A stretch of 64,000 nt of DNA from a virus (IMGVR_UViG_3300029117_000001:3829-67828); one strand, 5' to 3'. Numbered from the stretch's first letter, positions 448 to 44,604 are shown. Numbers and translations are program-made. Notes: generated by a model not told the origin, from the letters alone.

Positions 448-516
448 CGGAATGTAGCTCAGGTGGAAGAGTGCGCTACAAATGCGAGGTCACAGGTTCG
501 AATCCTGCCATTCCGA
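448..516 (+). tRNA. tRNA-like element, irregular (69 nt)
   Basis: 7-bp acceptor stem CGGAATG/CATTCCG, D-arm TAGCTCAGGTGGAAGAGT close to consensus, T-arm ACAGG-TTCGAAT-CCTGC and a discriminator A. Only 18 nt are left for the anticodon arm plus variable loop (a 3-bp stem CGC/GCG around loop TACAAAT), so the element is too short for a canonical tRNA and the anticodon is ambiguous. Confidence 0.4.
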
Positions 517-4373: not shown

Positions 4374-6068
4374 ATGGGAAAAATTACAGAAGGCTCGCTT
4401 GAATGGTATCGGGCAGTGCTGAATCAGATTATCAGTAGTGACATGACAATCTATCAAAATCAAAAAGATTGCCTTGATTTGCTCTTAAATATGAATATTG
4501 ACCTTCCTTTCAACAAGAACCAAGAATCACGGAAAATGGCTATGAAAGTAAGTCAATACTCACATAACATAGCAGAGAAGTGTGCCGCATTAACTGGAAG
4601 TGGTAATTTTGACGATATCTATTGGCAGTATTTGCTACTGGAAGCACCACATTTATTTGAAAGTTACTTGCTTTATATGGAAAAAAATAGACCGGACAGC
4701 AAGAAATTTTATATTCCACGAAAAAAAACACTGCATGTGGTAGCCAAAGACCTACAAGATTTGGAAGAAAGAAAGATAGAGTTTTACGGCTTATCACTTC
4801 CAAGCCGTGTTGGAAAATCCACTATGTGTATTTTCTTTATGTCATGGATAATGGGAAAAAGACCGAATAGTCATAGCGCCATGGGTGGTCATTCTGGAAA
4901 ACTGGCAAAAGGATTTTACGGAGAACTTCTTAACCTCATTAATACACAGGAATACAACTACAGTGAAATTTTTCCGCAATCGAAACTTCAAAAACAGAGT
5001 GCTGATGATTTTGAAATAAACCTGGACAAACCAGACCGATTTGCAACAATGACTTGCCGTGGTATTGAAGGTACTTGGACAGGTGCCGTTGATATTTCTT
5101 CTGATGGGTATTTGTACGTGGATGACCTTGTAAGAGATAGGCAACATTCATTAAGCCCTACCCGATTGGAAAATACATATCAAGAATATCTGAACAAGAT
5201 GGTTGACCGTAAGATTGATGGTGCAAGAGAACTTATGGTTGGAACCAGATGGAATTTATATGACCCTCTTGGAAAAATCGAGAAGCTAAATCGGGATAAT
5301 CCAATGTATCGGTTTAGAAAAATTCCAGCTTTGAACGATGATGGTGAATCCAATTTCGATTATGAGTATGGCGTTGGATTTTCAACAAAATATTATGTTG
5401 ATATGAAAGCTAGGCTAGACGCTAACGAATGGGAAGCTAAATATCAGCAAAAGCCCTTCTTGCGTGAAGGAATTGTGTTTGCAGCTGATGAATTGAGATA
5501 TTATAACGGCGTTCTTCCAGAAGGTGGATTTGTTAAAAATGTTTCTGCTTGCGATGTTGCGTGGGGTGGTGGCGATAGCTTATCAATGCCAGTGGGTGCA
5601 GAATACGAAAATGGAGATGTATATATTTATGATTGGATTTTTAGCACAGCACCAAAAGAAGGAACATTGCCATTAGTTGTTGGAAGAATCATGGGAAATA
5701 ATATTCAATCCATTAATTTTGAAGCAAATAATGGTGGAGATATGTATGCCTATTATGTAAACGAACGCTTGAAAGAACATAAATACGCTTGCAGCACGAC
5801 AAGTACAAAAGCACCTTCAAAACAAGCAAAAAAAGAAAAAATAAATCAATATTCCGGGGATGTTAAGCAAAATTTTATATTTTTGGCTCCGAAATATCAA
5901 GATAAACAGTATCAAAAGGCTATGGATGAATTAACTACATTCGTCTATATTGGTGATAATGAACATGATGACGCTGCCGATGGAGTTACGCAGCTTGCAA
6001 TAACGCTTGCCGGCAAAAGATTTGCAGAAGTAAAAGCAACCAAAAATTTTATGTGGGGAAGGAGATAG
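4374..6068 (+). CDS. terL: terminase large subunit
   Basis: 564 aa; Walker A-like P-loop GLSLPSRVGKST; C-terminal acidic nuclease-type residues (VGDNEHDDAADGV); lies upstream of the portal gene. Confidence 0.85.
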   Translation: MGKITEGSLEWYRAVLNQIISSDMTIYQNQKDCLDLLLNMNIDLPFNKNQESRKMAMKVSQYSHNIAEKCAALTGSGNFDDIYWQYLLLEAPHLFESYLLYMEKNRPDSKKFYIPRKKTLHVVAKDLQDLEERKIEFYGLSLPSRVGKSTMCIFFMSWIMGKRPNSHSAMGGHSGKLAKGFYGELLNLINTQEYNYSEIFPQSKLQKQSADDFEINLDKPDRFATMTCRGIEGTWTGAVDISSDGYLYVDDLVRDRQHSLSPTRLENTYQEYLNKMVDRKIDGARELMVGTRWNLYDPLGKIEKLNRDNPMYRFRKIPALNDDGESNFDYEYGVGFSTKYYVDMKARLDANEWEAKYQQKPFLREGIVFAADELRYYNGVLPEGGFVKNVSACDVAWGGGDSLSMPVGAEYENGDVYIYDWIFSTAPKEGTLPLVVGRIMGNNIQSINFEANNGGDMYAYYVNERLKEHKYACSTTSTKAPSKQAKKEKINQYSGDVKQNFIFLAPKYQDKQYQKAMDELTTFVYIGDNEHDDAADGVTQLAITLAGKRFAEVKATKNFMWGRR

Positions 6069-6071
6069 AAT

Positions 6072-6494
6072 ATGATGACTGCAACTCAATATTTACGCCA
6101 GATTGAAAATTATGATAACAGAATCAAAAACAAGCTTATCGAAGAAGAACAGCTCATTTCTCTTTCCACAAGTGTATCTGCAATTCCTGTTGGAGAAAAG
6201 GTACAAACTTCTGTAAAACGTGATCCGATGGGAGACATGATTGCGAAGATATTTGATCTGCGAGAAGAGATTTCAGAAATGATATCTGAATTTTTACAAA
6301 AAAGACAAGAAATAGTCCGAACTATAGAACAGGTTGAAGATCCATTACTATATGACATATTATTTAAGCACTATGTTGAGTACAAATCTTTGGTTCGCAT
6401 TGCAGATGAGATGGGTTATTCAGAGATTCACATTAAAAAAAAGCATTTAAAAGCCATAGCAGAAATAAAAAAGATAAAAGGTTTCGAAAGATGA
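6072..6494 (+). CDS. ArpU/RinA-like (sigma-70 region 4-like HTH) putative late transcriptional activator
   Basis: 140 aa; the C-terminus YDILFKHYVEYKSLVRIADEMGYSEIHIKKKHLKAIAEI has the sigma region 4 HTH pattern; size matches the ArpU/RinA family. Placement after terL is atypical. Confidence 0.4.
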   Translation: MMTATQYLRQIENYDNRIKNKLIEEEQLISLSTSVSAIPVGEKVQTSVKRDPMGDMIAKIFDLREEISEMISEFLQKRQEIVRTIEQVEDPLLYDILFKHYVEYKSLVRIADEMGYSEIHIKKKHLKAIAEIKKIKGFER

Positions 6495-6517
6495 TACCGA
6501 AGTATACTGAAAAATAC
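6493..6517 (+). promoter_or_regulatory. copy A of a 25-nt recurring motif GATACC-N-GTATACTGAA-N-ATAC
   Basis: GATACCGAAGTATACTGAAAAATAC; near-identical copies at 18247 and 31787, all at gene boundaries and all followed by a hairpin-T structure. Confidence 0.4.
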
Positions 6518-6545
6518 TTTTAATATGTGTAGAATATAAAGTAGA

Positions 6546-6579
6546 GCATTGGATTAAAATATCCAGTGCTTTTTATTTT
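6546..6579 (+). terminator. intrinsic terminator-like hairpin upstream of the portal gene
   Basis: GCATTGGAT/ATCCAGTGC stem (one G-U pair) followed by TTTTTATTTT. Confidence 0.5.
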
Positions 6580-6588: not shown

Positions 6589-8085
6589 ATGGTTCGGCTC
6601 GTGAGAAATACAATGAATTTTGTAGATTTATGCCGAGGTGATTTCGGGCGAAAAGTAGCCTACACAGGCGTTGACCGAATCACTCCACAAAATGTAGTAA
6701 AAGTAGTATCAGATACAATTGGCATACATAATAAAAATCGAACATTGATTGATTACTTGTATCGGTACATGAAAGGCGATCAGCCAATATTGTACCGAAA
6801 TAAAATAGTCCGTCCAGAAGTTAATAACAGAGTGGTTGAAAATCACGCATTTGAAACCGTGAAGTTTAAAGCTGGACAGATTTGCGGGGAACCAATCCAA
6901 TATGTATGTAAAAAGAAAAATGCAGATAAAAAAATAAATGAGCAAGTTGATTTGCTGAATGATTATCTTGATGAAGCCAATGCAGATGCAAGAAACATCC
7001 AGAGAGCAATATACCAAAGTGCAACAGGAACTTCTTATAAGGCTATTCTGAAAGAAGAGGACTGGACAGAAAACGGAGATTTACCGCCGTTTAGAATCTT
7101 TATTCCGTATCCTGGTGATTGTTACATTGTATATTCGCAGAGGAACGGAAAACCAATGCTGTCCGTTCAGATTTTGAAGGATGAAGATGAGCAACAATAC
7201 TACTTATGTTATTCAAAGAACCAGTTTTTCAAAATCACGAATGGAAAAGTAACCGAATATGGAATCAACGGTTTTGGTGGGATTCCTATTGTTGAATGCC
7301 CGAATAATCATGACAGACTTTCGGACGTTGAAATTGCAATCACATTATTTGATGCAATCAACAAATACCAGTCTGATAGATTAAATGGCGTTGAACAGTT
7401 TGTGCAAGCCTTTATGAAGTTCAAGAACTGCGAGGTAGATGAAAACGAGTTTTTGAAAATGGTAAAACTTGGTGCCATCTCTGTAAAAGATACTGGAAAT
7501 GGCTGTCAGTCGGATGTTGAACTGATGACCGCTGAATTGAATCAATCAGAGAGCCAGGTTGCAAAGGATGATATCTACAATAACATGCTGATTGTGGAAG
7601 CAATGCCAAACCGCCAAAGCAATAGCGGAGGGGATACAGGAAATGCTGTATACCTTCGTAATGGATGGGACTTCGCAGAAAGAGATGCAAAATTGGTAGA
7701 AGCATTTACCAAGGAAGCTGAAAAGGAATCTGCTAGAATTATTCTGAATATTATCCGTGGTACATCAAATGATGTTAATATCTCAACCCGAGATTTTGAT
7801 GTAAAGATAACCAGAAACCCAACAGACAATATGCTTGTAAAAGCACAGGCACTTGATTATCTGTTTAAAAATAAAATTCATCCGCTTATTGCACTGATTA
7901 CTTGCGGTTTATTTAGTGATCCGCAGAAAGTCTACGAAATGAGTTTACCGTATCTGGGAACTATTTACCCGGAACTGGCAGACCCGGAAGCGGAAATGCA
8001 GAAAGCACAGCAATTACTTGACGGAAAGTTTCAAAATCCGTCCAAAACAGAACCAATGGCAAATTCTCCATCTAACGAAGAATGA
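6589..8085 (+). CDS. portal protein (SPP1 gp6-like family)
   Basis: 498 aa; gene order terL-portal-scaffold-capsid; the N-terminal region resembles SPP1-type portals. The exact start is uncertain (GTG at 6601 is an alternative). Confidence 0.8.
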   Translation: MVRLVRNTMNFVDLCRGDFGRKVAYTGVDRITPQNVVKVVSDTIGIHNKNRTLIDYLYRYMKGDQPILYRNKIVRPEVNNRVVENHAFETVKFKAGQICGEPIQYVCKKKNADKKINEQVDLLNDYLDEANADARNIQRAIYQSATGTSYKAILKEEDWTENGDLPPFRIFIPYPGDCYIVYSQRNGKPMLSVQILKDEDEQQYYLCYSKNQFFKITNGKVTEYGINGFGGIPIVECPNNHDRLSDVEIAITLFDAINKYQSDRLNGVEQFVQAFMKFKNCEVDENEFLKMVKLGAISVKDTGNGCQSDVELMTAELNQSESQVAKDDIYNNMLIVEAMPNRQSNSGGDTGNAVYLRNGWDFAERDAKLVEAFTKEAEKESARIILNIIRGTSNDVNISTRDFDVKITRNPTDNMLVKAQALDYLFKNKIHPLIALITCGLFSDPQKVYEMSLPYLGTIYPELADPEAEMQKAQQLLDGKFQNPSKTEPMANSPSNEE

Positions 8086-8250
8086 ACCAAATTTCGATTA
8101 TTTAAGGAGTTTTAGAGAAATCTAAGGCTTCTTTTTTAATACCCAAAATCAAATAAATTGCAACAGCCCGTGAGCGTAAATCGGGTACAGACCATGTGCG
8201 GAGCGAACCGTGTTGAAAAAGCGTATTGGACTGGAAGAAAGGAGATTTCA

Positions 8251-8898
8251 ATGACAAGAGAACAGGCAAAACAGGCACTTATCGGTATGGGAGTTGCAGA
8301 ACCTTCCGAGGAACAGGTTTCTAAGCTTCTTGATTCTATTTCTGCTGAAACTAAGAAAGAGAAAGACAAAAATGTTTCTCTGAAGGAAAAAGCTGAAAAA
8401 GCAGATTCCCTGGAAAAAGAGTTGGAAGATTTGAAAAAGCAGAACATGACCGAAGCAGAACGGCTAGAAGCTGAACGCAAGAAAGAAAAGGAAGCAGTGG
8501 ATAAGGAGTTAGCTGATTTGAAAGCTGCGCTTGCAGAATCCAACAAAAAAGCCCTTACCAGTGAAATTACTTCTATGTTCGCAAATGCAGGACTTTCAAC
8601 CGAAACATACGCGAGTGCTATTAAAGCATACGCATCTGCACCGTATGAGAAACCAGAAGATGCAATGAAAGAAGTCGAAACTTTTGTTAAGGGAGTTTCC
8701 GAAGCAAATAAAACAGCACTTGATACCGCAAAAGCAGCTTGGGAGAAAGAAGCATTGGAAAATACTCCTAATCCAGGAGGCGGTAGCGGTGGCAAACAGG
8801 AAAAAACTAGTAAAGCGTCTGAGTACGCTAAACAGTATTCGGCACGCATGAACCCAGATGCAAAACCGGCTGATGATAATGCACCAGCTAATTTCTAA
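8251..8898 (+). CDS. head scaffolding protein
   Basis: Strong RBS GAAAGGAG 7 nt upstream of ATG 8251; Glu/Lys/Ala-rich coiled coil throughout; sits between the portal and capsid genes. Confidence 0.6.
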   Translation: MTREQAKQALIGMGVAEPSEEQVSKLLDSISAETKKEKDKNVSLKEKAEKADSLEKELEDLKKQNMTEAERLEAERKKEKEAVDKELADLKAALAESNKKALTSEITSMFANAGLSTETYASAIKAYASAPYEKPEDAMKEVETFVKGVSEANKTALDTAKAAWEKEALENTPNPGGGSGGKQEKTSKASEYAKQYSARMNPDAKPADDNAPANF

Positions 8899-9277: not shown

Positions 9278-10312
9278 ATGGCATACAATGTATTAGAAGC
9301 AATCAGCGAGGAAGAAAGACTTAATTTCTCCCAGAATTTCTCTGTTAAAAGACCTGGAATCCTTGATACCATTTTCCCGGATGTAAAAACAGATTACTGG
9401 AAGGCTGAATACTACAGACTTATGAGCGGACAGCGGCTTCCGGAAATCGCATTTGTACATGCCCTTGACACCGAAGCAGAAATCGGTTCCAGACCTGGTT
9501 TTGAAAAGGTGTTGACCGAGAAACTTCTCATTAAAAGGAAGCTCAATCAGTCCGAGAGCTTACAACAGGCTATCGAGAACGGTGTACCAGATAATGAGGA
9601 ACTTACAGACTTTGTATTCGATGACGCGACAAACCTTTTTGAGGCCGTCCTTGCCAGAACCAAAGTTATGAAAGGCCAGGCACTGTCTACTGGAAAACTT
9701 GTTATCAAAGAAAACAAAGTGGACATGACTATTGATTTTGGAGTTCCGTCTGAATTAAAAATTACCATTACAGACTGGTCTAAACCAGATTCTGATATTA
9801 TGGGTGATATTCAGAAAATGGTTCAGCTTGCAGAAGATGGCGGATATGTTGTCAATAAGGCAATTACCTCTCTTAAAATGATTAACAACATGAGAAACAA
9901 CACCGGAATGCAGACCGCAGTTCTTGGAGCTGCAAATAAACGTCTTCTGACGAAACAGGAGCTTGCGAACCTTCTCATGCAGGAGTACGGAATTACAATT
10001 GATCGCTGTGACGAAAAGTTCCGTTACAGAAGCAAAGGCATTGTTAAAACAGGTAGATATTTCAAAGAAGATGTATTTACCCTGTATGAATCTAACCAGG
10101 ATGGTTCTTTTGGTACTGGACTTTGGGGCGCAACACCAGAGGAAAAAGAGTACCGTCAGTTCATTCAGCAGCAAAACCGTTCCTTTATTACCATGTCCAT
10201 GTGGGCTACGCCAGATCCAGTTGCAGTATGGACGAAAGCTTCTGGAATGTTCATCCCGGTTGTACCGAAAGCAAACGGCGGTATCGTGATCGGTACCAAG
10301 GCGGGGGAATAA
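9278..10312 (+). CDS. major capsid protein (lambda gpE-like family)
   Basis: 344 aa, which matches lambda gpE (341 aa); lies downstream of the scaffold and decoration genes; strong RBS AAGGAGGA. Confidence 0.75.
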   Translation: MAYNVLEAISEEERLNFSQNFSVKRPGILDTIFPDVKTDYWKAEYYRLMSGQRLPEIAFVHALDTEAEIGSRPGFEKVLTEKLLIKRKLNQSESLQQAIENGVPDNEELTDFVFDDATNLFEAVLARTKVMKGQALSTGKLVIKENKVDMTIDFGVPSELKITITDWSKPDSDIMGDIQKMVQLAEDGGYVVNKAITSLKMINNMRNNTGMQTAVLGAANKRLLTKQELANLLMQEYGITIDRCDEKFRYRSKGIVKTGRYFKEDVFTLYESNQDGSFGTGLWGATPEEKEYRQFIQQQNRSFITMSMWATPDPVAVWTKASGMFIPVVPKANGGIVIGTKAGE

Positions 10313-10948: not shown

Positions 10949-11260
10949 ATGGGATGTGAACACGAGTGTATCAACGAACACCGCTTGGAAGAATTGGAAA
11001 ATGCCGTCCGTGAGATGAAAGAAAAGCATTCCAAAAGGGATGAAGGCTTTTTTAATCGTATCAATGCGCTAGAACAGAAAATTGCTTTATACAACAACGA
11101 TCTGGGACACATCAAAGATACAGTTGACGAAATGAACGACAATTTAAAAGCACTCATGGAAAAACCAGGAAAATTACAGGACAAAATTATTGCTTATGTC
11201 ATAACTGGCATAATCGGTATTATTTTAGGCTTTGCCCTTAAAGGCATTTTCCCGGTGTAA
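10949..11260 (+). CDS. XhlA-like protein (coiled-coil N-terminus plus C-terminal transmembrane helix)
   Basis: Leucine-zipper-like N-terminus, then AYVITGIIGIILGFALKGIFPV as a single C-terminal TM helix. The architecture matches haemolysin XhlA-type lysis-associated proteins. Confidence 0.45.
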   Translation: MGCEHECINEHRLEELENAVREMKEKHSKRDEGFFNRINALEQKIALYNNDLGHIKDTVDEMNDNLKALMEKPGKLQDKIIAYVITGIIGIILGFALKGIFPV

Positions 11261-11291
11261 TATTGATTCCACTAACAGGGAGGACGGTGGA

Positions 11292-11531
11292 ATGGATAAT
11301 TATAAAGACTTTTCGGAAGATGAAAGAATCTTCTATTTGCGTGAAGCTGGATTTGATTCCAGAGAAAAAGAGTTATTCCGATTGCGTGTTTACGAAGAAA
11401 AAACACTTGCAGAAGCTTCAGAAATCATGGGTTACAGCACAAGAACAGTAGACCGCATAAACAGAAAATTAAAGAAGAAAATTATGAAAGTCGCCCCGAT
11501 GTATTGTCGGGGCTTTTCTTTGTATTCATAA
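11292..11531 (+). CDS. sigma-70 region 4-like HTH protein (candidate late regulator)
   Basis: RBS AGGGAGGACGGTGGA; LAEASEIMGYSTRTVDRINRKLKKKI is a classic sigma region 4 / LuxR-type HTH. Confidence 0.5.
   Translation: MDNYKDFSEDERIFYLREAGFDSREKELFRLRVYEEKTLAEASEIMGYSTRTVDRINRKLKKKIMKVAPMYCRGFSLYS
11492..11522 (+). terminator. rho-independent terminator
   Basis: GCCCCGA-GTATT-TCGGGGC hairpin followed by TTTTCTTT; overlaps the 3' end of the preceding CDS. Confidence 0.6.
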
Positions 11532-13264: not shown

Positions 13265-13296
13265 GTAACTCACCCTTAGAGGTTGACTAAATTCTA

Positions 13297-13330
13297 AGAG
13301 GTGGGTTGCGGCTCACCTCTTATTTTGATT
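13297..13330 (+). terminator. rho-independent terminator
   Basis: AGAGGTG-10 nt-CACCTCT hairpin followed by TATTTTGATT. Confidence 0.6.
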
Positions 13331-14401: not shown

Positions 14402-14420
14402 AGCAATAAATGAATTAAGT

Positions 14421-14456
14421 CCTTGTCGCAAATTAATGCGGCAGGGGCTTTTTTCG
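14421..14456 (+). terminator. terminator-like hairpin
   Basis: CCTTGTCGC ... GCGGCAGGGG imperfect stem followed by CTTTTTTCG. Confidence 0.5.
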
Positions 14457-17341: not shown

Positions 17342-17734
17342 ATGAGAGGATTAGTCCGTCAAAAGCAAAAAGTATATTGGTCACGAATTACTGAAAAAAC
17401 AAAAGGATTAGACCGTATTAAAGTTTATGAGAAACCAGTTCTATACTCTTTTTCTGTATCATCTACAGCCGGAACACCAGAAGAAATTGCAGCCGGAATA
17501 GTGCCAGATTATGACAGGTATATTACAAGCTTTAATCGAAATTTTCATCCACAGGAAGCGGACATATTTTGGATAGATAGAATTCCACAAATAAGCGAGG
17601 ACGGAAGCCTTATTTTGAGCAAAGATGGAGAACCCACAGTATTGCCAGATTACACGCTAAAGAAGATTTTAGACACACAAAAAGGCAATATTGCCAGATA
17701 CGGAATTTCTAAAAGAGGAAACGAAAATGGGTAA
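17342..17734 (+). CDS. hypothetical protein (possible head-tail joining protein)
   Basis: RBS AGAGAGGAAA; size and position fit a head-closure or adaptor protein. Synteny only. Confidence 0.35.
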   Translation: MRGLVRQKQKVYWSRITEKTKGLDRIKVYEKPVLYSFSVSSTAGTPEEIAAGIVPDYDRYITSFNRNFHPQEADIFWIDRIPQISEDGSLILSKDGEPTVLPDYTLKKILDTQKGNIARYGISKRGNENG

Positions 17735-18242
17735 GACAATAAAGTGTACCTTATCACAGAAATCAATCCAAAAAGCTATTGATGAAATAAAAAATTATCA
17801 AAAATCTTTAAGGAACAAAAATGAAATTTTCATAAAAAGATTATGTGAATTAGGGATTCCAGTTATTGACCAAAATATTTTGGCAGCACAAGGCGATTCC
17901 GATAAGAACCACAATACTTACATCAAAATTAACAGTTTTGGGGACTATGCAGAAGCCCACTTAATATGTGAAGGAATAGACCTTTTGTTTATAGAGTTCG
18001 GTGCAGGTATTCACTACAATGGTGCATCCGGTTCTAGTCCGCACCCAAAAGGAGAAGAATTTGGTTATACAATTGGTTCTTACGGACAAGGAAAAGGAAA
18101 AAACGATTCCTGGGTATATATTTCTGATTCCGGCGAATGGGTACGTTCTTACGGTACAGAAGCTACAATGCCAATGTATAAGGCAAGCGTAGAAATCATT
18201 CAGAATATCCGCAAAATTGCCAAAGAGGTATTCTATTCCTAA
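17727..18242 (+). CDS. hypothetical protein (possible neck protein)
   Basis: ATG 17727 overlaps the upstream gene; synteny only. Confidence 0.35.
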   Translation: MGKTIKCTLSQKSIQKAIDEIKNYQKSLRNKNEIFIKRLCELGIPVIDQNILAAQGDSDKNHNTYIKINSFGDYAEAHLICEGIDLLFIEFGAGIHYNGASGSSPHPKGEEFGYTIGSYGQGKGKNDSWVYISDSGEWVRSYGTEATMPMYKASVEIIQNIRKIAKEVFYS

Positions 18243-18246: not shown

Positions 18247-18272
18247 GATACCATAATATACTGAATGATACC
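18247..18272 (+). promoter_or_regulatory. copy B of the 25-nt recurring motif
   Basis: GATACCATAATATACTGAATGATACC, followed by the inverted copy GGTATCATT, which forms a hairpin. Confidence 0.4.
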
Positions 18273-18317
18273 AATTAATTATGGTATCATTACAGTGTTA
18301 AATTGTAGCATAAAATG

Positions 18318-18353
18318 CAATGCGTTCACTATGAAGGTGGGCGCATTTTTTAT
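18318..18353 (+). terminator. terminator-like hairpin upstream of gene 18369
   Basis: AATGCG-17 nt-CGCATT followed by TTTTTAT. Confidence 0.35.
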
Positions 18354-20253: not shown

Positions 20254-20577
20254 ATGGATTCTACACCAGCTGAATTAAAACCTTATCTCGAAGCTGAAAA
20301 GATACGTCAAAAGAGAAGAGACGCTGAGCTTTGGCAAGCGGGCATTTATGAAACATCAGCCACATTCACAGCTGTTGCAAATGCTTTAATGGGAAAAAAA
20401 TCCAAGGCAGAGTATTTGAAAAAACCTTTACTGGAATCAGCAGAGGAAGAAAAGCGTAAACAGGAAGGTATACTTTCCGAAGAAGAAAAGAAAAAACAGA
20501 GAAATGCACTTTTGGCAAGCTTGCAACTCATGCAGGCGAACTTTGAGCTTAACCATGAAAAGGGCAGGCAGGATTAA
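20254..20577 (+). CDS. second tail-chaperone-region protein (gpT-like position)
   Basis: Lys/Glu-rich; lies between gpG-like gene and TMP. No obvious slippery-site fusion to the upstream ORF. Confidence 0.4.
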   Translation: MDSTPAELKPYLEAEKIRQKRRDAELWQAGIYETSATFTAVANALMGKKSKAEYLKKPLLESAEEEKRKQEGILSEEEKKKQRNALLASLQLMQANFELNHEKGRQD

Positions 20578-20603
20578 CACTCTTGTCTGCCCTTTATTTT
20601 TTT
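20562..20603 (+). terminator. terminator-like hairpin immediately upstream of the TMP start
   Basis: GGGCAG-19 nt-CTGCCC followed by TTTATTTTTTT; the stop codon of the preceding CDS lies in the loop. Confidence 0.5.
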
Positions 20604-20626
20604 GTAAAAAAGGAGGGACAAATAAA

Positions 20627-23600
20627 ATGGCTGACAATACCATTGATACCCTTGATATACAAATTAGCAGTAGTACAGAAAAAGCAGTACGTGCGCTGAC
20701 TAATCTTTCAAACAAACTCACAGAAGTTAATTCCGCATTAAGCGGAGTTAATACAAACGGATTACGTAGTTGTGTAAGGGAGCTTGGAAAACTAAAAGAA
20801 CTTGATATAGGGAAAATGACAAGCATTGCTGATGGAATTGGAAAATTCTCAAATTCCATAAAGACAATGGGCGGAGTAGATTATAAAGGCTCTGGTCTGA
20901 ATGCAGTTATAAACTCAATAAACAGACTTAGCCAGGTTGATGTTAGTGGATTTGATTCTGGGAAACTCGGAGAAATAATCCATAAATTATCAGGCTTATC
21001 GGAAATACCAGATGTATCTACCAGTGTTAATCGCTTTGTCAATTCAATGGCTAGATTAGCCAATTCCGGTGAATATATTGCGAATGTATCAGCTGAATTG
21101 CCTGGGCTTGGAAGAAATCTTAAATCAATTGTAGAGAGTTTTACGAGCGTTGGCGATATATCTGAACCTGTAAATAGGTTAGTTCAGTCTATTGCACAAT
21201 TGGCAAGCTCTGGAAATAAAATCGGACAAACGTCAAGCCAACTTGGAACCCTAGCAAAGGAAGTATTATCTTTCTTTGACGTGATGAAAACTGCACCTAA
21301 AATCAGTGATAACACAATCCGAATGACGGAAGCACTGGCAAAGTTGGCTAATGCAGGGGGAAAGGTAAATTCCGCTACAAATTCTATATCCAGTGCGTTT
21401 TCTAAATTATCATCTGCAACATCTAGCCTTGGTAATATTGTTAGTAAAACTTCTTCTATAATTGGAACCGGGGTAAAAGGCATTATTGGATGGTTTCAAC
21501 GTCTCGGGAATAGTAGTTCTGGAATTAAAACCGCTTCTTTTAATCTCGGAAATTTGCTTAAAACTGCTATCGGTTTTAAGGCTATTCGTGGTCTGGCAAA
21601 TTTAGGAAAAAGTGCAATTGGTTTTGGCTCTGCTATTACAGAAATCGAAAATGTTGTAGATGTTTCCTTTGGAAGCATGGCAGATGAAGCCTACAAATTT
21701 GCTTCTACGGCCAAAGAACAATTTGGATTATCAGAATTGGCAGCAAAGCAATATTCTGGAACCATGATGGCAATGATGAAATCATCTGGTGTTGCGCAAG
21801 ATGCAGCTTCTAAAATGTCAATTTCTCTTGCTGGATTAGCCGGGGATATTGCATCATTTTACAACATTGATACAGATACTGCTTTTCAGAAAATACGCTC
21901 TGGAATTTCCGGGGAAATTGAGCCTTTAAGACAATTGGGTATTAATTTATCCGTTGCAAATATGGAGGCTTATGCTCTTTCAAGGGGAATTACAACATCT
22001 TATAATGCAATGTCTCAAGCTGAAAAAGTTGCTCTTCGATACAACTATTTAATGTCAGTTACAGGAGATGTGCAAGGAGATTTCGCAAGGACATCTGGCA
22101 CCTGGGCGAACCAGGTTCGTTTGCTCACTCTTAACTTCCAGTCACTTTCCGCAGTAATTGGGCAAGGATTGATTGCCGGCATTCTTCCTGCTATTCAAGC
22201 TCTTAATGCACTTATGTCAAAACTTATGCAAGCTGCGAATGTGTTCCGTAACTTCATGTATGTATTGATGGGAAAGAAACTAAAAGGCTCGCAGAGTGGA
22301 GTTAGTGATATCGTATCTAATTTAGGTGGTATAGAAACAGCTGGTGATGACGCATCTTCTGGGCTTGATGACGCTACATCATCTGCTAAGAAACTGAAAA
22401 AGGCACTTTCCGTATTGCCATTCGACCAATTGAATCAGCTTACCGATAATTCCGATAATTCTGGAACTGCATCTAAAAGTCTTGGTTCTGGACTTGGAGA
22501 TTTGGCAGATAGTTTTTCTGGAATACAAGATTCACTGGATGAAGTTTTGACTGTTGATGAAACACCAATTAATAAATGGGCTTCTAAAATTAGAAAGGCA
22601 TTTATCAATAAAGACTGGCAGGGGCTAGGCTTTACTATTGCAGATATGATAAATGTTGGAATGGAGAAAATATACGAAGTTATTAATTGGAATAATGTTG
22701 GCCCGAAAATAACTGAATTTGTAAATGCTTTTACAACAGCATTTAATTCCATGGTTAGCGGAATTGATTTCGACTTAATGGGAAGAATGCTTGGAGCTGG
22801 AATTAACACGGCAGTAAATACCCTAAACCTGTTGCTCGGAGAGGGAGGAATAGATTTTTCCGGAATAGGGGCAAAACTGTCTCAACTTTTAAAAGGTGCT
22901 ATAAAGGAAATTGACTGGACAGGTCTTGGAAACTTAATTGGGAACAGTTTTATGGCATCTTGGAAAATGCTTTCTGGCTTTGTAAAGGATATGTCTAAAA
23001 AGGATGGTGCTGGAATTACTGGATGGGGTAAGCTTGGCACTGCTATTGGAAAAGCCTTAAATGGTGCAATAAAAAAGATAGACATGAACACAATTGCAGA
23101 TGCACTTTCTGGTTTATTAAACGGAGCGTTCGAAAGCTTAAAATCATTTACAGAAACATTTAATTGGGATGATCTCGCAACCAAGATAAGAGATGGAATC
23201 GCTAAATTCATCAAAGAAACAAACTGGAAAGAAAATGGACAGGCTCTTGGAGATTTTATATCTCACCTGTGTACCGCATTAAAAGATTCTCTCACTACAG
23301 ACACATTCTATGAGTTCGGACAAGGAGTTGGAACATTCCTTGGTGAATTGCCATGGGGTGAAATCCTTAGTACAGCAGCTGATCTGCTATTAACTGGCCT
23401 TACCAGTGCATTAAACGGATTATTCGATGGATTAGAGGAAAAGCACCCGATAGCCGGACATATTGCAGAATGGCTTACAAAAGCATTTATTGCAGTAAAA
23501 ATAGCAAATATCACAGGTATCAGTACTCTTGTTGGTTCACTTGTGGGACATATTGCGAGTAAAATAGCTGAAAAGAAAAACGCTGAAATGATTGCTGAAA

Positions 23601-25303
23601 AATTAGCAGATGTACTTGGAGATGGCACAAGTGGAGCAAAAGAAGCAATAAAAGATTTAGGGGATGCGGCAGGTTCTTCAAGCAGTAAATTTGGCTCTCT
23701 TGCTAAAGCACTTGGCCCTCTTGTAGGTGAAGCTGGACTTATCGTGGCAGTAGGAGTAGCTGCAGCTGGCGCAACCTCTCAATTGGCTGGTCTTGTTGAA
23801 ACCATGCAAGGCGGTAATGGTGTTGGAACCACATTTGGCAATACCATGAATAACTTCATTCAAACTTTACAGAGAAGAGGTGATATTCTTTCTGGATCAG
23901 CAGAGGAAATTTGGCAGTTAAAAGAAAGCCTTGAGCAAGAAGGGATGACCGCCGAGGATAAGGCAAAAGCAACACAACAATTGATTGACAAGTTGGGAGA
24001 AATGGGGGTTACATCCGACCAGGCAGAGCAAGCATTTTCTCAATTAAACCAGAAAGGTCTTATTACGGACGACATGTTTAAAATATTGTCTGATTCTATT
24101 AAAACATTGGATGATAAAACAACAAATATGTCTGGAAGTATTGACCTTAGTAAACAGTCGATTGATGATTTGTATGACACTGTTCTTCCACAATTGCAAA
24201 CACAGTTAGGACTTAGCGCAGATGAAATGGTTTCTCTTGATACAGCATTAATGGAAGCTGAAAATTCTGGTGGCACTGCACAGGATGCATTTGATAATAT
24301 CATGGCGCGCGCCAAGGAACTCGGAATCAATACAGAATCTGTAGCAAAGATTTTTGCACAAGTATTCCCAGATTCCGTGAAAGAGATGGAAACTAAGACG
24401 AAAACCTCTATCAGCAGTACAAATACTTTTGTAAAAACTGGAATGGGAAGCATATCCAAAGCTACAGGAACTGCAATGTCTGGAATTCAAACAGCAACTG
24501 AGAAAGCTATGTCTGCCGCACAGACAAAAGTAAAAACTTCCACAGAAAATATTAGTTCTGATTCTAAAACAAACTGGGGAAATTCCGCAAGTGCTGTATC
24601 GACAGCTCTCGGAACCATGGACACCGATACAAAAGATGTAATGGGTAAGGTTATGACAACCATTCAAAGTTATTGGTCTTCTGTTCTAATCAATACAAAC
24701 CAGATTTGGGAAAAGGCTTCTGGTAAAGTTGACACGGAAACTGGGAAAATGAAATCTTATACAGAAACCAATTTGTCTGGGATTTCGGATAAAATTAAAA
24801 GGCTATTTAATGTTAATCTTACATCAATTGGTCGGGAAACTGCTCAATCATTCGCTGATGGCATGAAACAAGTACATTTACCAACTCTGACTTATTATAT
24901 TTCAGAGTGGAGAAAACATGATCTTGGCGGTGGAAGAACCAGTTCTACACCAGTTTACAAGCCTAATTGGTATGCCAAAGGTGGTCTTTTCAATGGCGCA
25001 CAGGTAATTGGTATCGGTGAAGCCGGTTCCGAAGCCGTTCTTCCACTGGAAAATCCACGAACCATGAAGAAGATCGCAGACAGCATTGTTTCCAGTTCGG
25101 ACGGAAGCATGGGACTTACAAAAGAAGAAATGACAAAAGCAGTAGCCCAGGGAGTCGCAATGGCAATGAGCATGAACAGCGGAACCAAAAATCCGCAATA
25201 CATTATGAACAGCATTATTCTGGACGGAAACGAGATTGCAAAGGCTGTGACCAAAGCCCAGAATGATACGGATAGCCGTTTCAAACCATCCCCGGCATAT
25301 TGA
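20627..25303 (+). CDS. tail tape measure protein (1559 aa)
   Basis: RBS AAAAAGGAGGGAC; very long Ala/Gly/Ser-rich alpha-helical protein; conserved C-terminal motif AKGGLFNGAQVIGIGEAGSEAVLPLEN. Confidence 0.85.
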   Translation: MADNTIDTLDIQISSSTEKAVRALTNLSNKLTEVNSALSGVNTNGLRSCVRELGKLKELDIGKMTSIADGIGKFSNSIKTMGGVDYKGSGLNAVINSINRLSQVDVSGFDSGKLGEIIHKLSGLSEIPDVSTSVNRFVNSMARLANSGEYIANVSAELPGLGRNLKSIVESFTSVGDISEPVNRLVQSIAQLASSGNKIGQTSSQLGTLAKEVLSFFDVMKTAPKISDNTIRMTEALAKLANAGGKVNSATNSISSAFSKLSSATSSLGNIVSKTSSIIGTGVKGIIGWFQRLGNSSSGIKTASFNLGNLLKTAIGFKAIRGLANLGKSAIGFGSAITEIENVVDVSFGSMADEAYKFASTAKEQFGLSELAAKQYSGTMMAMMKSSGVAQDAASKMSISLAGLAGDIASFYNIDTDTAFQKIRSGISGEIEPLRQLGINLSVANMEAYALSRGITTSYNAMSQAEKVALRYNYLMSVTGDVQGDFARTSGTWANQVRLLTLNFQSLSAVIGQGLIAGILPAIQALNALMSKLMQAANVFRNFMYVLMGKKLKGSQSGVSDIVSNLGGIETAGDDASSGLDDATSSAKKLKKALSVLPFDQLNQLTDNSDNSGTASKSLGSGLGDLADSFSGIQDSLDEVLTVDETPINKWASKIRKAFINKDWQGLGFTIADMINVGMEKIYEVINWNNVGPKITEFVNAFTTAFNSMVSGIDFDLMGRMLGAGINTAVNTLNLLLGEGGIDFSGIGAKLSQLLKGAIKEIDWTGLGNLIGNSFMASWKMLSGFVKDMSKKDGAGITGWGKLGTAIGKALNGAIKKIDMNTIADALSGLLNGAFESLKSFTETFNWDDLATKIRDGIAKFIKETNWKENGQALGDFISHLCTALKDSLTTDTFYEFGQGVGTFLGELPWGEILSTAADLLLTGLTSALNGLFDGLEEKHPIAGHIAEWLTKAFIAVKIANITGISTLVGSLVGHIASKIAEKKNAEMIAEKLADVLGDGTSGAKEAIKDLGDAAGSSSSKFGSLAKALGPLVGEAGLIVAVGVAAAGATSQLAGLVETMQGGNGVGTTFGNTMNNFIQTLQRRGDILSGSAEEIWQLKESLEQEGMTAEDKAKATQQLIDKLGEMGVTSDQAEQAFSQLNQKGLITDDMFKILSDSIKTLDDKTTNMSGSIDLSKQSIDDLYDTVLPQLQTQLGLSADEMVSLDTALMEAENSGGTAQDAFDNIMARAKELGINTESVAKIFAQVFPDSVKEMETKTKTSISSTNTFVKTGMGSISKATGTAMSGIQTATEKAMSAAQTKVKTSTENISSDSKTNWGNSASAVSTALGTMDTDTKDVMGKVMTTIQSYWSSVLINTNQIWEKASGKVDTETGKMKSYTETNLSGISDKIKRLFNVNLTSIGRETAQSFADGMKQVHLPTLTYYISEWRKHDLGGGRTSSTPVYKPNWYAKGGLFNGAQVIGIGEAGSEAVLPLENPRTMKKIADSIVSSSDGSMGLTKEEMTKAVAQGVAMAMSMNSGTKNPQYIMNSIILDGNEIAKAVTKAQNDTDSRFKPSPAY

Positions 25304-25440: not shown

Positions 25441-25565
25441 ACCGTTAATTTTGGTAAAACCAACAGGCTAGACCGATCATCGAAAAGCGGAAATGCCTTG
25501 CCGCCTGCCTGTTGATTTACATACAGTTCAAGGCACTCTTTTATACGAAAGGCAGGTATCAATCT

Positions 25566-26783
25566 ATGGCAAGAAAACCACTTAGCAAGAAAATCAGATT
25601 TGAAGTATTCAAAAGAGACAAATTCACATGTCAATACTGTGGAAGAATGTCACCAGACGTAATTTTGGAAGTAGACCATATTGAGCCAGTAGCAGAGGGC
25701 GGGGATAATGAGATTACAAATTTAATTACTTCGTGCCGCGACTGCAATAGAGGGAAGGGCAAAACTAGAATTTTAGATTCCAAAGCAATATCGTTTCAAC
25801 AGGAAGCATTAAAAGATCTTGCAGAGAAAAAAGAACAGTTGGAAATGATTGCTGAATGGAAGAAAGAGCTACTTGATTATGATAATATGGCAGTAAACAT
25901 GCTAACGGAATATTTTGAACAATTGACAGGGTGTGATGTAAACGATAACGGACGTAAGGAAATAGGAATATGGTTAAAAAGATTTTCAGCAGATAAAATT
26001 ATGGAAGCAATGGAAAAATCTGTAAAATCATATTGTAAAGAATTTTCGTACGATGAAATTGTAATGGCATTTTCAAAAATACCAGGAGTGTGTATTAATC
26101 ACTCAAAGGGGGATAATAAGTCAAAGTATTATTTTAATTATATAAAAAAAGTTTTAACATCACGAGGAATAGAGTTCAATCCGAAACTTTTAAAATATTA
26201 TGTTGAAACATATTTGATTACAGAAGAAGATTTTGCAGCGGAAAAGAAAAGTAAACGGTATTTAAAAATATTTGTTTCATATCTACACCCCAGATTTGAT
26301 AAAGATAAATTTGCTCAAAACTATATGATGGATAAATGCTTTGTTGGGATCGCTGATATTGACGGAGAAAAGAGCATAGAAAATCTTAAATATGGGCTTG
26401 ATTTAGAAAACAAAGGTTATTTCTTTTCAGATAGATACTCTCCGAAAAATAGAGTTAGTTTGATTCCTTATCTCAATGGCTTTACAGAACTGTTAAGAGA
26501 ATATTATAGAGAATATTATCAAACATATAATGAGCCTCATCCTGTTTTAACTACCGAACAGGGATTAAGGCTTTTAAATCATTATGCGTCAAATAAATAT
26601 TGGGCGAACTGTGTTACAAAAGAAGACTATTGTAATATGTTTTCAATGCTTAAATTGAGTAAAGAATATGGTTGGAAGGAGCAAATGCCAGAAGCTATGT
26701 TTACAAGTGGTGGTACTATTTGTGACGAGAAAATTGCAGAATATGAAAGCGAGGAAAGAAAAAAGCATGATTTTCGACCTTAA
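25566..26783 (+). CDS. HNH endonuclease domain fused to a ~330-aa uncharacterised C-terminal domain
   Basis: N-terminus FEVFKRDKFTCQYCG ... EVDHIEPVAEGGDNEITNLITSCRDCNRGKG is a canonical HNH (H-N-H with a Cys4 zinc site); the remaining ~330 aa have no recognisable motif. Confidence 0.6.
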   Translation: MARKPLSKKIRFEVFKRDKFTCQYCGRMSPDVILEVDHIEPVAEGGDNEITNLITSCRDCNRGKGKTRILDSKAISFQQEALKDLAEKKEQLEMIAEWKKELLDYDNMAVNMLTEYFEQLTGCDVNDNGRKEIGIWLKRFSADKIMEAMEKSVKSYCKEFSYDEIVMAFSKIPGVCINHSKGDNKSKYYFNYIKKVLTSRGIEFNPKLLKYYVETYLITEEDFAAEKKSKRYLKIFVSYLHPRFDKDKFAQNYMMDKCFVGIADIDGEKSIENLKYGLDLENKGYFFSDRYSPKNRVSLIPYLNGFTELLREYYREYYQTYNEPHPVLTTEQGLRLLNHYASNKYWANCVTKEDYCNMFSMLKLSKEYGWKEQMPEAMFTSGGTICDEKIAEYESEERKKHDFRP

Positions 26784-28926: not shown

Positions 28927-28958
28927 AGGCTAGGGATTTCTCCCTAGCCTTTATTTTA
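28927..28958. terminator. bidirectional terminator between convergent genes
   Basis: Perfect AGGCTAGGGA/TCCCTAGCCT hairpin followed by TTATTTTAG. Confidence 0.55.
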
Positions 28959-30302: not shown

Positions 30303-30426
30303 AAAACAGCCGTAGCACCGACCAAAGCACAAACGACTGTTTAAGCAACCAGAAGTCTCACATCTGGTAATCAATATCTTATCATTTGTGAGACTTCTTT
30401 TCAAGAGAAAAGGAGTATTTTTTTAT

Positions 30427-31188
30427 ATGAACGAAATCACAATTAACACAGCAAACCGGACACCTATCGAAATCGCACTTGGAATTGATGAAGAGGGCAT
30501 GACTACTGCCAGAAAGTTATATGCCTTTTTAGAATTGGATTCTAGCAATTATTCAAGATGGTGCAAGAGCAACATTACAGGAAATGAATTTGCAGAGGAA
30601 AACGTTGATTATTGGGCATTCGTCATTAATGACGAGACGCCGACAGGTGGTGTTATTCAGAGAGAAGATTACAAGCTTTCTGCCAGCTTTGCAAAGAAAC
30701 TTTCTATGCAGTCAAAGAGTGCCAAAGGTGAACAAGCCAGACAATATTTTCTCAAAGTAGAGGACAAATTAAAAGAAACAGTTCGCCACCCAGTACCAAT
30801 GACCATCCCCGAACAGATTCAGCTTCTAGCACAGGGAAACGTAGAACTGAATAAGCGGATTGACGATATTCAGACAGAGTTTGAGACTTTGAAAATGGAT
30901 TTGCCGATTCTCCCGATTGAAGCGGAGAAAATCACGGAAGCCGTAAAGAGAAAAGGAACGCTGGTACTTGGTGGCAAGGAATCCAATGCTTACAATAGCC
31001 GTTCCATTCGCCAGAAGGTTTACAGTAACATTCATTCCAATCTGCGCTACCAGTTCCAGGTCAAAAGCTACAAGGCAATTAAGAGAAGCCAGGTAGAACA
31101 GGCAGTCAAGATTATTGGAGAATACAAACCGCCAGTTTTCTTGAAGAATGAGATTGATACAGAAAATGCACAGCAGAGATTCTTTTAA
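30427..31188 (+). CDS. phage antirepressor (AntA-like N-terminal domain plus ORF6C C-terminal domain)
   Basis: RBS AAAGGAG; domain pattern typical of AntA/AntB antirepressors with a C-terminal ORF6C-type region. Confidence 0.55.
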   Translation: MNEITINTANRTPIEIALGIDEEGMTTARKLYAFLELDSSNYSRWCKSNITGNEFAEENVDYWAFVINDETPTGGVIQREDYKLSASFAKKLSMQSKSAKGEQARQYFLKVEDKLKETVRHPVPMTIPEQIQLLAQGNVELNKRIDDIQTEFETLKMDLPILPIEAEKITEAVKRKGTLVLGGKESNAYNSRSIRQKVYSNIHSNLRYQFQVKSYKAIKRSQVEQAVKIIGEYKPPVFLKNEIDTENAQQRFF

Positions 31189-31224: not shown

Positions 31225-31476
31225 ATGACAGAAAATATGGATAGAGAAGACGCAATGTTCGAAGTAGAGGACACTATTGATAAAATCAAGTTTCTTTTGG
31301 ACGATTTCATGGAACAGTATGGATTTAATAGCACAGAAAAAATGGACGAACTGAAAAAATGGCAGTTTGCATATAACAAGCAATTTATGACAATGAAATT
31401 GTTGATTTTATGCGATTATGCCAATAAAGCAAGACAGAAATTTAAGGCTCTTGAATCTATGGAGCAGAAAGCGTGA
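31225..31476 (+). CDS. hypothetical protein
   Basis: RBS ACAGGAGGAAAATAAAATG. Confidence 0.4.
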   Translation: MTENMDREDAMFEVEDTIDKIKFLLDDFMEQYGFNSTEKMDELKKWQFAYNKQFMTMKLLILCDYANKARQKFKALESMEQKA

Positions 31477-31480
31477 TCGT

Positions 31481-31777
31481 ATGGCAAATAGAATCCAGTT
31501 CAATGACTTTCAGAAAAAGAGTGTGTACGCCAAGTGCAACGGAAAATGTGCGATATGCGGTAAGCCTGTCAAATTCAAGAAAATGACAATCGACCACATT
31601 ATGCCGTTGTCTCGTGGCGGCACAAATGATATTAAGAATCTGCAACTGGCGTGTAAGCGTTGCAACAGCATGAAGAGTAACATGACAATGGATGATATGA
31701 TGGGGCAGATTTCCGAGATTTTGAAGTATAACCGCAAACAGAAGTTGATTAGAGTGTTGGGAGGAATTATAGAATGA
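31481..31777 (+). CDS. HNH endonuclease
   Basis: CNGKCAICGKP ... DHIMPLSRGGTNDIKNLQLACKRCNSMK: HNH with a Cys4 site. Confidence 0.65.
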   Translation: MANRIQFNDFQKKSVYAKCNGKCAICGKPVKFKKMTIDHIMPLSRGGTNDIKNLQLACKRCNSMKSNMTMDDMMGQISEILKYNRKQKLIRVLGGIIE

Positions 31778-31786
31778 TACCATAGT

Positions 31787-31811
31787 ATACTGAATGATAC
31801 TTTCAACGTAT
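31787..31811 (+). promoter_or_regulatory. copy C of the 25-nt recurring motif, followed by an extended -10
   Basis: GATACCATAGTATACTGAATGATAC, then TGtTATAAT at about 31817-31825, then a hairpin plus T-run before the Rha gene. Confidence 0.4.
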
Positions 31812-31913
31812 GTTATAATATAAAATCATAATAAGCAAATTTTAAAGCGTTTACCTTTTGGGGTAGGCGCTTTTTTGTTGCCAAAAAATAAATCATAAAG
31901 GAGATATGAATTT

Positions 31914-38598: not shown

Positions 38599-38798
38599 TT
38601 ATGTGTTAGAGAGCTGCGGAAATTATAGCCTCCTTATCACGGTACAGCTATACTTGTGGTAAGGAGGTGATGTCATTATGACAGAGAATTTAATCATGGT
38701 AGGTATATTGTATAAAAAGTTTATGTTAAAGAGCATCCCATTTGGGGTGCTTTTTATTATGCACTTTTTTAACCTCAACAATGAAAGGAGAACATACA

Positions 38799-44322: not shown

Positions 44323-44604
44323 ATGATTAAATTCGAAAACGGTTTAGTTAACATTTCTGGTAAAGGGATTGATATTCTTTCAGAGTATGCAGTTATTACC
44401 CATGAAATTAAAGAGATGTTCGTAAAGGATGGTGGAGAAGAGGAAGAAGTAAAAGAGCAGCTTAGACATTCGTTCGAGCATGGCCTTATGAACGAGGAAG
44501 AACTTGACAAGCGGTTTATTGAAGCTATGAAAGATCCTGGTTTAGTAGGAATGTTAATTGGAGCAGCTGGGCTTTCGTTATTATTCGGTCAGAAGGACAA
44601 GTAG
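44323..44604 (+). CDS. hypothetical protein whose 3' end abuts or overlaps the left end of the IS
   Basis: RBS AAGGAGGAAAAATAGCATG. Confidence 0.4.
   Translation: MIKFENGLVNISGKGIDILSEYAVITHEIKEMFVKDGGEEEEVKEQLRHSFEHGLMNEEELDKRFIEAMKDPGLVGMLIGAAGLSLLFGQKDK

Follow-up and report, generated by a model that had tools for sequence, protein, structure and literature searches.

RinA, ArpU, LtrA (sigma70_r4), LtrB (DUF1492) and LtrC activate the late genes of Gram-positive phages (PMC3152322, PMC3753634, PMC13123087). Ltr proteins, including a DUF1492 member, need three or four direct repeats directly past their own gene; regulator and repeats are mutually specific, with the protein's C-terminal region reading the repeats, and the repeat block confers control on unrelated (heterologous) downstream DNA (PMC3753634). 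In these systems an intergenic terminator blocks read-through when the regulator is absent (PMC3753634, PMC3152322, PMC13123087). Here we describe a 25-nucleotide (nt) repeat block that occurs three times in a 64,000-nt stretch of viral DNA, IMGVR_UViG_3300029117_000001:3829-67828 (the window), each copy being followed by a -10-like element and an intrinsic terminator. We call each such unit a cassette (A, B and C in order along the window; Table 1), and propose that the three are late promoters controlled by a 140-amino-acid (aa) protein of the DUF1492/LtrB kind.

The arrangement resembles the Ltr superfamily in its small sigma-region-4-like regulator, its three short direct repeats (three or four in Ltr systems) past the regulator's own stop codon, its intergenic terminator, the match between repeats and C-terminal helix, and the predicted control of genes for packaging, head, tail and lysis. 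Judged from its sequence, cassette A is a textbook member of the Ltr (DUF1492) kind, because direct repeats follow the regulator gene, a terminator is present, and repeats and helix pair as published. The differences lie in number and position. Published Ltr systems are described with a single late promoter, upstream of terS, that drives all of the late cluster, whereas the window phage has three dispersed cassettes per ~80-kb genome; the ltr gene lies directly upstream of terS, where the morphogenetic cluster begins, whereas the regulator gene of the window phage lies between terL and portal; and cassettes B and C, unlike the published systems, have no ltr gene in front of them. In RinA phages the mapped transcription start is > 155 bp from the binding site, whereas the repeats of the window phage are 12–13 nt from the -10. 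The Alt/Plate system of the lactococcal phage TP901-1, as cited in PMC3152322 and PMC13123087, likewise has imperfect direct repeats, at about -76 to -32, that are bound by a phage activator and overlap the -35 region; as cited there, it differs in having four repeats that reach further upstream and one promoter per genome. What is new relative to published Ltr systems is that three cassettes lie dispersed in each genome and that the terminator is a part of the cassette.

A 25-nt repeat block at three late-gene boundaries

The pattern GATACCNNARTATACTGAANNATAC has three matches in the window, all intergenic (Table 1), with the consensus GATACC-N3-RTATACTGAA-N2-ATAC. This bears out the original prediction, made from the sequence of the window, that a 25-nt motif recurs three times at late-gene boundaries; copy C, placed there at 31787, starts 11 nt further left. 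Of the 25 positions, four distinguish copies A and C, and one distinguishes B and C. No further match exists in the window even when up to three mismatches are allowed: the next-best positions are 7–8 of 25 bases off the consensus, and every other position at least 7. Dinucleotide shuffles gave an expectation of 0.00 chance matches, which together with the distance to the next-best sites rules out a chance repeat. We also rejected the idea that the motif is the end of an insertion sequence or of a miniature inverted-repeat transposable element, as all copies are on the + strand, no inverted copy is present, and the only transposase gene (44558-45760) is not flanked by the motif.

When read in register, the motif consists of three (G/T/A)ATAC(C/T) units, one starting every 10 bp (GATACC / TATACT / GATAC-), a spacing that would place the repeats on one face of the helix. 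In copies A and C the first G-A of the motif is supplied by the TGA stop codon of the upstream gene, and copy B begins 5 nt past the TAA stop of the open reading frame (ORF) 17691-18242. Two other TATACTGAA 9-mers, at 40710 and 45692, are without flanking ATAC units and are attributable to chance. Copy B additionally contains a perfect palindrome, GATACCAATTAATTATGGTATC (18267-18288), made of the third repeat and an inverted copy that overlaps the -10; it is missing in most relatives, which have ...caaccaattatgTTATGAT.

Table 1. Elements of the three cassettes and the two sigma-region-4-like proteins (window coordinates).
Feature	Position	Strand	Details
Cassette A repeats	6493..6517	+	GATACC-GAAG-TATACT-GAAA-AATAC; overlaps TGA stop of regulator gene
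Cassette B repeats	18247..18271	+	GATACC-ATAA-TATACT-GAAT-GATAC; after ORF 17691-18242
Cassette C repeats	31776..31800	+	GATACC-ATAG-TATACT-GAAT-GATAC; overlaps TGA of HNH gene 31418-31777
Cassette A extended -10	6526..6535	+	TGTG + TAGAAT; hexamer 12 nt past repeats
Cassette B extended -10	18280..18290	+	TATG-G-TATCAT; hexamer 13 nt past repeats
Cassette C extended -10	31809..31819	+	TATG-T-TATAAT; hexamer 13 nt past repeats
Cassette A intrinsic terminator	6543..6579	+	12-bp stem + TTTTTATTTT; start about at predicted +1; hairpin 6543-6572, -15.9 kcal/mol, z -4.9
Cassette B intrinsic terminator	18319..18353	+	12-bp stem, T6; hairpin 18319-18347, -18.4 kcal/mol, z -3.4
Cassette C intrinsic terminator	31844..31877	+	13-bp stem, T6; hairpin 31844-31873, -21.2 kcal/mol, z -4.1
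Late regulator gene, 140 aa (DUF1492/LtrB)	6072..6494	+	between terL and portal
Small sigma70_r4 protein, 79-86 aa	11292-11531 (ORF 11232-11531, real start ~11292)		among head genes

Each repeat block is followed by an extended -10 and a terminator

Behind every copy lies a TRTG sequence followed by a TATAAT-like hexamer, which is the Firmicute '-16' or extended -10 signature. With the hexamer set at -12 to -7, the repeat units fall at about -50, -40 and -30 and the block as a whole at about -50 to -26, and the -35 position is occupied only by CTGAAT, which has 3 of 6 matches to TTGACA. The sequence put forward by the original prediction as the -10 of copy B, TAGCATAAAAT (18306-18316), is not conserved in relatives; the -10 at the conserved spacing is TGG-TATCAT, with its hexamer at 18285-18290. 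In most cassettes a second TAnnnT hexamer lies 0–1 nt past the -10 hexamer and before the predicted +1; in the window these stand at 6537-6542, 18291-18296 and 31821-31826 (TAGAAT-a-TAAAGT, TATCAT-TACAGT and TATAAT-a-TAAAAT). They could be alternative -10 or sigma-contact elements. The -10-like element of a Q-type sigma-dependent, promoter-proximal pause lies within the early transcribed region.

The predicted stem-loop with a T-run is found behind each of the three copies, with folding energies from -15.9 to -21.2 kcal/mol and z-scores from -3.4 to -4.9 (Table 1); the hairpin of copy C, given earlier as 31854-31890, lies ~10 nt further left. The hexamer and the hairpin are separated by 7 nt (A), 28 nt (B) and 24 nt (C), and a Shine–Dalgarno (SD) sequence and start codon follow 10–36 nt past each terminator. 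At site A these belong to portal, which starts at 6589 (ATG) or, by alignment with relatives, 6601 (GTG); at site B, GAGGTG precedes the ATG at 18369 of the tail-side unit's first gene; and at site C, AAAGGAG precedes the Rha gene (31914-32573). Strong + strand terminators number roughly a dozen in the 64 kb. We roughly estimate a chance of 1–2% that one begins no more than 70 nt from any given point, and hence a chance of the order of 1e-5 to 1e-6 that this happens in three of three cases.

Two alternative positions for the transcription start were rejected. A promoter concealed past the terminator but before the start codon, which the start mapped in 80alpha would suggest, would have only 10–36 nt, SD included, and no conserved TAnnnT occurs there. 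A start site inside the hairpin, by which transcripts of the cassette would be without the 5' arm of the stem, is conceivable only at A, where the loop contains TAAAAT, and is unconserved at B, at C and in relatives. As there is neither room nor a conserved signal for a promoter past the terminator, expression of the downstream genes requires that polymerase read through it.

Conservation of the cassette in related phages

We retained the best 80 of the 193 stretches found with the regulator in IMG/VR, in which the protein is 96–99% identical, on contigs of up to ~85 kb; the phage family is very abundant in human-gut viromes, where the regulator is encoded on hundreds of IMG/VR contigs. Among annotated phage records the only matches were unannotated human-faeces fragments. 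More distant regulators were found at 85%, 70%, 51% and 34% identity, a profile search added many at 30–55%, and the order terL-regulator-portal is kept in all lineages fetched. A scan of IMG/VR with the motif itself yielded at least 120 matches.

In aligned intergenic regions, the 85% and 70% lineages keep GATACC-N4-(T/G)ATACTGAAT-(T/G)ATAC. In the 51% lineage the sequence is (G)TATG-N4-CATATGGAAT-CATAT: ATAT(G) has taken the place of ATAC as the unit, and the 10-bp phasing and the 13 nt to TATAAT are unaltered. In every lineage examined, direct repeats stand directly past the regulator gene. A 79-kb complete-length relative from the 70% lineage, 3300045988_123515, has exactly three pattern matches, at the A, B and C positions, and tblastx of the flanks onto the window places the cassettes of ATAT-type genomes at the same three positions; the equivalent of site C in these relatives lies in front of the module of the 1541-aa tail protein. 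The search of related phages that the original prediction had suggested as a check thus finds all three positions occupied in lineages whose regulators are 85%, 70% and 41–51% identical.

For counts of spacing and hairpins we collected 145 distinct cassette sequences. All 145 have a hexamer with at least 4 of 6 matches to TATAAT located 12 or 13 nt past the third repeat, and in 144 the hexamer matches at 5 or more positions. A hairpin of -8 kcal/mol or below with a T-run lies within 110 nt in 143 of the 145 (median -15 kcal/mol), and in most cassettes the stem begins 7–17 nt past the -10, i.e. at about +1 to +10 of the transcript. In the spacer between motif and hexamer, positions 9–12 are conserved (T 0.88, A/G 0.94, T 0.92, G 0.78) and positions 1–8 are variable (107 distinct sequences).

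A footprint of site A was derived from 33 distinct sequences at 80 loci, which were retrieved via the protein, so that the motif search introduced no bias. Invariant in this set are the ATAC units, the TRTG/-10 and the stem; variation is confined to the linkers that separate the units, the 4 nt past unit 3 and the loop. Across lineages, the stem is kept by compensatory changes on both sides in 4 of its 11 pairs. In one relative (L226) the upstream gene has its own terminator (8167-8198), yet the cassette (8210-8290) brings a second one, which indicates that the terminator belongs to the cassette and not to the regulator gene. The same can be said of cassettes B and C in the window: no regulator gene stands in front of them and yet they carry a terminator, which is therefore not 'the ltr terminator'.

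Beyond these lineages, the order regulator stop, repeats or GAAT, TATAAT-like hexamer, hairpin-T, ribosome-binding site, gene is present in five of six distant DUF1492-type phages (Ruminococcus phage NatCom_28775, phage NatCom_35866, a Christensenellales phage, Erysipelothrix phi1605 and Streptococcus Javan630). The rinA-terS region of 80alpha is without the 12–13-nt geometry, so that the grammar of the window should not be extended to the RinA class. We also noted a 'leader terminator + HNH' module that follows the regulator and is widely shared: the hairpin-T, TTTTTCTATGCCC-GAAGGAGGTGA and the first codons of the HNH gene next in line are nearly identical in gut Clostridia phages, Erysipelothrix phi1605 and Streptococcus Javan630 (L336-L339).

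As a possible trace of the host or of prophages, matches to the motif in GTDB genomes (596 Gb) were considered and discarded, the 23 found being about the number expected by chance by our estimate; a 160-kb contig that encodes a homologue likewise gave no clue to the host. Only one of the 23 resembles a cassette: Blautia faecis NZ_JAJCIA010000001.1 (L356) contains an orphan ATAC-type site, GATACCAAATGATACTGAAATATAC, on the minus strand at ~510, with 13 nt to TAAAAT and a small gene behind it; no terminator is present, and the ~500 nt of sequence available upstream contain no regulator gene in the same orientation.

The regulator and its match to the repeats

The 140-aa protein scores 23.7 bits (E = 5.7e-5) with Pfam DUF1492 (PF07374), above the curated cutoff of 21.5, and matches phrog_36, transcriptional regulator (E = 1.9e-17), with a weak match to phrog_79, 'Q-like'; its homologues carry PF07374 and PF04545. 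In the AlphaFold2 model (predicted local distance difference test score, pLDDT, 87) a helical hairpin (residues 4-86) is followed by a sigma-4-like domain (residues 91-136). The best fold matches of the model are sigma-4 domains, and the C-terminal domain superposes on those of extracytoplasmic function (ECF) sigma factors to 1.5–2 Å over ~56 residues. No sigma-2 domain is present in the model or in any profile match (no Sigma70_r2). Fold searches with the model revealed no similarity to Q proteins, and against Pfam Phage_antitermQ the protein scores 19.8 bits, below the cutoff of 26 and over the helix-turn-helix (HTH) part only. A sequence search found no homologous solved structure.

In the lineages compared, the type of repeat changes with the recognition helix of this protein. 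Three ATAC lineages have the helix YSE(I/V)(H/T)(I/M)K(K/R)xH, and three ATAT(G) lineages, whose regulators are 41–51% identical to the window protein, have YS(I/V)QHIRSCH; a further relative (L371) has three ATGTT units at 10-bp spacing and yet another helix. Repeat type thus tracks the recognition helix across six lineages, with one partial exception (L337) to which we return below.

Two proteins with a region resembling sigma region 4 had been put forward as candidates to bind the motif, and the comparison separates them. The candidacy of the regulator stands, as its helix co-varies with the repeats. The second candidate, a small protein encoded among the head genes, was rejected as repeat binder: identity is 79–95% among genomes of either repeat type, and its helix does not vary between ATAC and ATAT genomes, so that it is not the specificity partner of the repeats. 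A terminator hairpin lies inside the last codons of its gene.

Genes of the three proposed late units

Cassette A lies in the order terL (4374-6068), regulator (6072-6494), portal (6589-8085) and starts the head unit, which comprises portal, the major head protein (9278-10312) and others. The tail unit begins at cassette B, with a holin-like gene, the major tail gene at 19198 and the tape measure (20504-25303). Upstream of cassette C is an island of HNH, superinfection-exclusion-like, opposite-strand immunoglobulin-domain, Ant and second HNH genes, bounded by a bidirectional terminator at 28927, and behind the cassette follow Rha (31914-32573), the 1541-aa tail protein (32953-37578) and an endolysin (38678-39604). 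From 40 to 64 kb the window contains replication and recombination-type genes. No part of the window was found to encode a small terminase subunit.

Strong intrinsic terminators also occur in the late region on the + strand with neither cassette nor promoter behind them, at 8104-8133, 11493-11513, 13295-13322, 14417-14450, 20559-20595 and 28927-28950. Those at 11493, 13295 and 14419 are kept in relatives, and between A and B polymerase has to pass the conserved terminators at 8106, 13295 and 14419 as well, each with the next gene directly behind it. Terminator-like sites are in excess over shuffled sequence at 1–20 kb (27 versus 13.4 +/- 4.1) and 20–40 kb (26 versus 12.3 +/- 3.9), with no excess at 40–60 kb (11 versus 11.6 +/- 3.0).

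Discussion

We consider it probable that each copy of the motif is the upstream half of a late-promoter cassette that depends on the phage regulator. The original prediction, which took the motif for the site of a phage-encoded regulator at late promoters with a leader terminator, is strengthened by the fixed spacing to the -10, the conserved positions, the covariation of helix and repeats, and the membership of the regulator in DUF1492/LtrB. The extended -10 would be of the host sigma-A type with a weak -35 (CTGAAT), with the repeats just upstream of it. Covariation and the family literature suggest that the regulator binds the repeats via its sigma-region-4-like HTH, probably as an oligomer held together by the N-terminal helical hairpin. 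The bound regulator would then replace the missing -35 contact and switch on the three late units, with A driving portal and the head genes, B the tail genes, and C the Rha gene, the large tail protein and the lysis genes; cassette C would thereby restart late transcription past an island of moron-like and opposite-strand genes. Two points weigh against this proposal. The -10 was assigned by comparison only, and L337, whose regulator is 39% identical, has GATACC repeats with a different helix, so that the relation between helix and repeat is no simple code.

In T4, the phage protein MotA, with AsiA, reads a box at ~-30 in place of the host -35 contact, and the host-type -10 is kept, much as we propose here. 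The T4 system differs in that a second protein remodels sigma-4, MotA has an unrelated fold, and there are neither phased repeats nor a leader terminator. It is improbable, by our assessment, that the 140-aa protein itself is an alternative sigma factor, or that it takes the place of sigma region 4 and directly reads the -35-like GAAT between repeats 2 and 3. Its C-terminal domain does superpose on ECF sigma-4 domains, GAAT lies at about -34 to -31 in cassettes of the ATAC, ATAT and ACAGTA types alike, and one source labels a homologue 'specialized sigma subunit'. Yet a protein in which no sigma-2 domain appears cannot open a -10, the -10 has the textbook form of an extended -10 for host sigma-A, and three phased repeats suggest several DNA-bound protomers and not one sigma-4. 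We regard it as less probable still that the cassettes are genes for small RNAs, with transcripts of 35–60 nt as the functional product. The gap of 7–28 nt between promoter and terminator would give short transcripts whenever termination occurs, and the lambda and Stx PR' leaders yield such RNAs as by-products (PMC7547250). However, the hairpin sequences vary between sites and lineages with only their pairing kept, the segment of 7–28 nt from the -10 to the stem is without a conserved single-stranded seed, and an Rfam scan of the window has no match at any cassette, its matches (tRNA, int-alpA, RAGATH-18) all lying elsewhere. Least probable of all, to a point where we give it hardly any credence, is that the motif is bound by the second protein, or is a chance repeat, the end of a mobile element, or a recombination hot-spot at module borders. 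The small protein has a significant Sigma70_r4 match, the cassettes do lie at module borders, and a Rha gene appears to move between them. Against this stand the invariance of the small protein's helix across ATAC- and ATAT-type genomes, the lack of any inverted copy, target duplication or - strand copy, the unflanked transposase gene, and a fixed phasing to the -10 and a footprint pattern that are not expected of recombination sites.

The role of the terminator is less clear. One possibility, which we hold tentatively, is that it acts as a gate like lambda PR'-tR' with Q or the promoters controlled by AlpA: it would halt polymerases coming in from upstream or initiating in the regulator's absence, and polymerases that initiate at a regulator-bound cassette would pass. 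Lambda Q (PR'-QBE-tR', QBE being the Q-binding element) is alike in having a DNA site for a phage protein in the late promoter, a terminator directly downstream, and late genes behind the terminator with further terminators inside (PMC7171158, PMC7547250); it differs in that PR' is strong and constitutive and has a -35 of its own, and the window regulator has no similarity to Q in fold and none of significance in sequence. AlpA of Pseudomonas aeruginosa, which was first taken for an activator, binds a promoter element and thereby brings about bypass of a downstream intrinsic terminator; as a small phage-type HTH protein, it is the closest precedent for a gate (PMC7969949, PMC9371919). It differs from the regulator described here in belonging to another protein family, in its proteobacterial host, and in using a single binding element versus three phased repeats, and it was not among the matches shown in fold searches of the regulator.

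The competing possibility, to which we also give less than even weight, is that the regulator is a pure activator that only recruits RNA polymerase, and that the terminator is leaky and serves two purposes: the hairpin-T would attenuate without blocking, ending and stabilizing the upstream mRNA and, as it lies only a few nt from the 5' end, protecting the late mRNA from decay that depends on this end. Stem-loops that stabilize 5' ends in Firmicutes act near +1 to +10 of the transcript, which is where the stem begins in most cassettes. The Ltr family is published as activators, the other late-region terminators, which have no cassette, must be read through anyway, and three promoters would be sensible if transcription of a unit decays with distance. 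On the other hand, a stabilizer needs no T-run, and 143 of the 145 cassettes retain one; the stems are long and contain G+C, at -16 to -21 kcal/mol with 5–6 T, and look efficient by sequence; the separate terminator in front of the L226 cassette leaves the internal one unneeded for the upstream gene; and the order of promoter and terminator is never reversed. We slightly prefer the gate, because this order does not vary, the T-run is kept, and the L226 cassette brings a terminator of its own. Also in favour of the gate are the compensatory changes that keep the stems, the like order in five of six distant DUF1492-type phages, the strong terminators without promoters inside the late region, and the roughly twofold excess of terminator-like sites at 1–40 kb.

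A wider version of the gate, which we think rather doubtful, is that DUF1492/ArpU-type 'late activators' are promoter-loaded antiterminators, or have that activity too. The repeat-bound regulator would join the polymerase via its sigma-4-like domain and make it resistant to the terminator of the cassette and to further terminators of the late operon. Several points weigh against the gate. The regulator is not Q-like by fold or by any significant sequence match; attenuating internal terminators are common in phage late operons; and processive antitermination from A would make cassette B partly redundant. The Ltr family is described as activators (PMC3152322, PMC3753634), and in 80alpha and phi11, of the RinA family, the start mapped by rapid amplification of cDNA ends (RACE) lies downstream of the terminator (PMC3152322). 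The fold of the regulator and the start sites of 80alpha and phi11 argue in particular against generalizing the gate, and the library searched contained no paper found to link Ltr proteins to antitermination.

The late regulon of the window phage can be read from sequence as one regulator and three cassettes, and the grammar of the cassette (three 10-bp repeats, 8 variable nt, TRTG, -10, terminator) should aid late-gene annotation and the design of reporters. The layout makes the old question of how Ltr proteins act across the terminator directly testable, and the natural ATAC/ATAT pairs are a ready-made specificity-swap experiment. If the antitermination view were true, it would reinterpret two published properties of Ltr systems, namely the location of the binding sites upstream of a terminator that blocks read-through, and the ability of the repeat block alone to control unrelated downstream DNA.

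Other features of the window

Two more Rha/Ant-type genes are present in the window, at 30388-31188 and 42268-42891. A Rha-family gene leads the unit behind cassette C in the window; in some ATAT-type relatives (L273 and related loci) it is cassette B that has this gene first in line, so that the Rha gene appears to move between cassettes. The Rfam matches above the gathering score are a tRNA at 448-516 (+), an int-alpA RNA at 25461-25533 (+) and a RAGATH-18 RNA at 45807-45880 (+). The int-alpA RNA lies just before the large HNH ORF 25512-26783 and overlaps its start, and the RAGATH-18 RNA lies directly past the transposase ORF (44558-45760).

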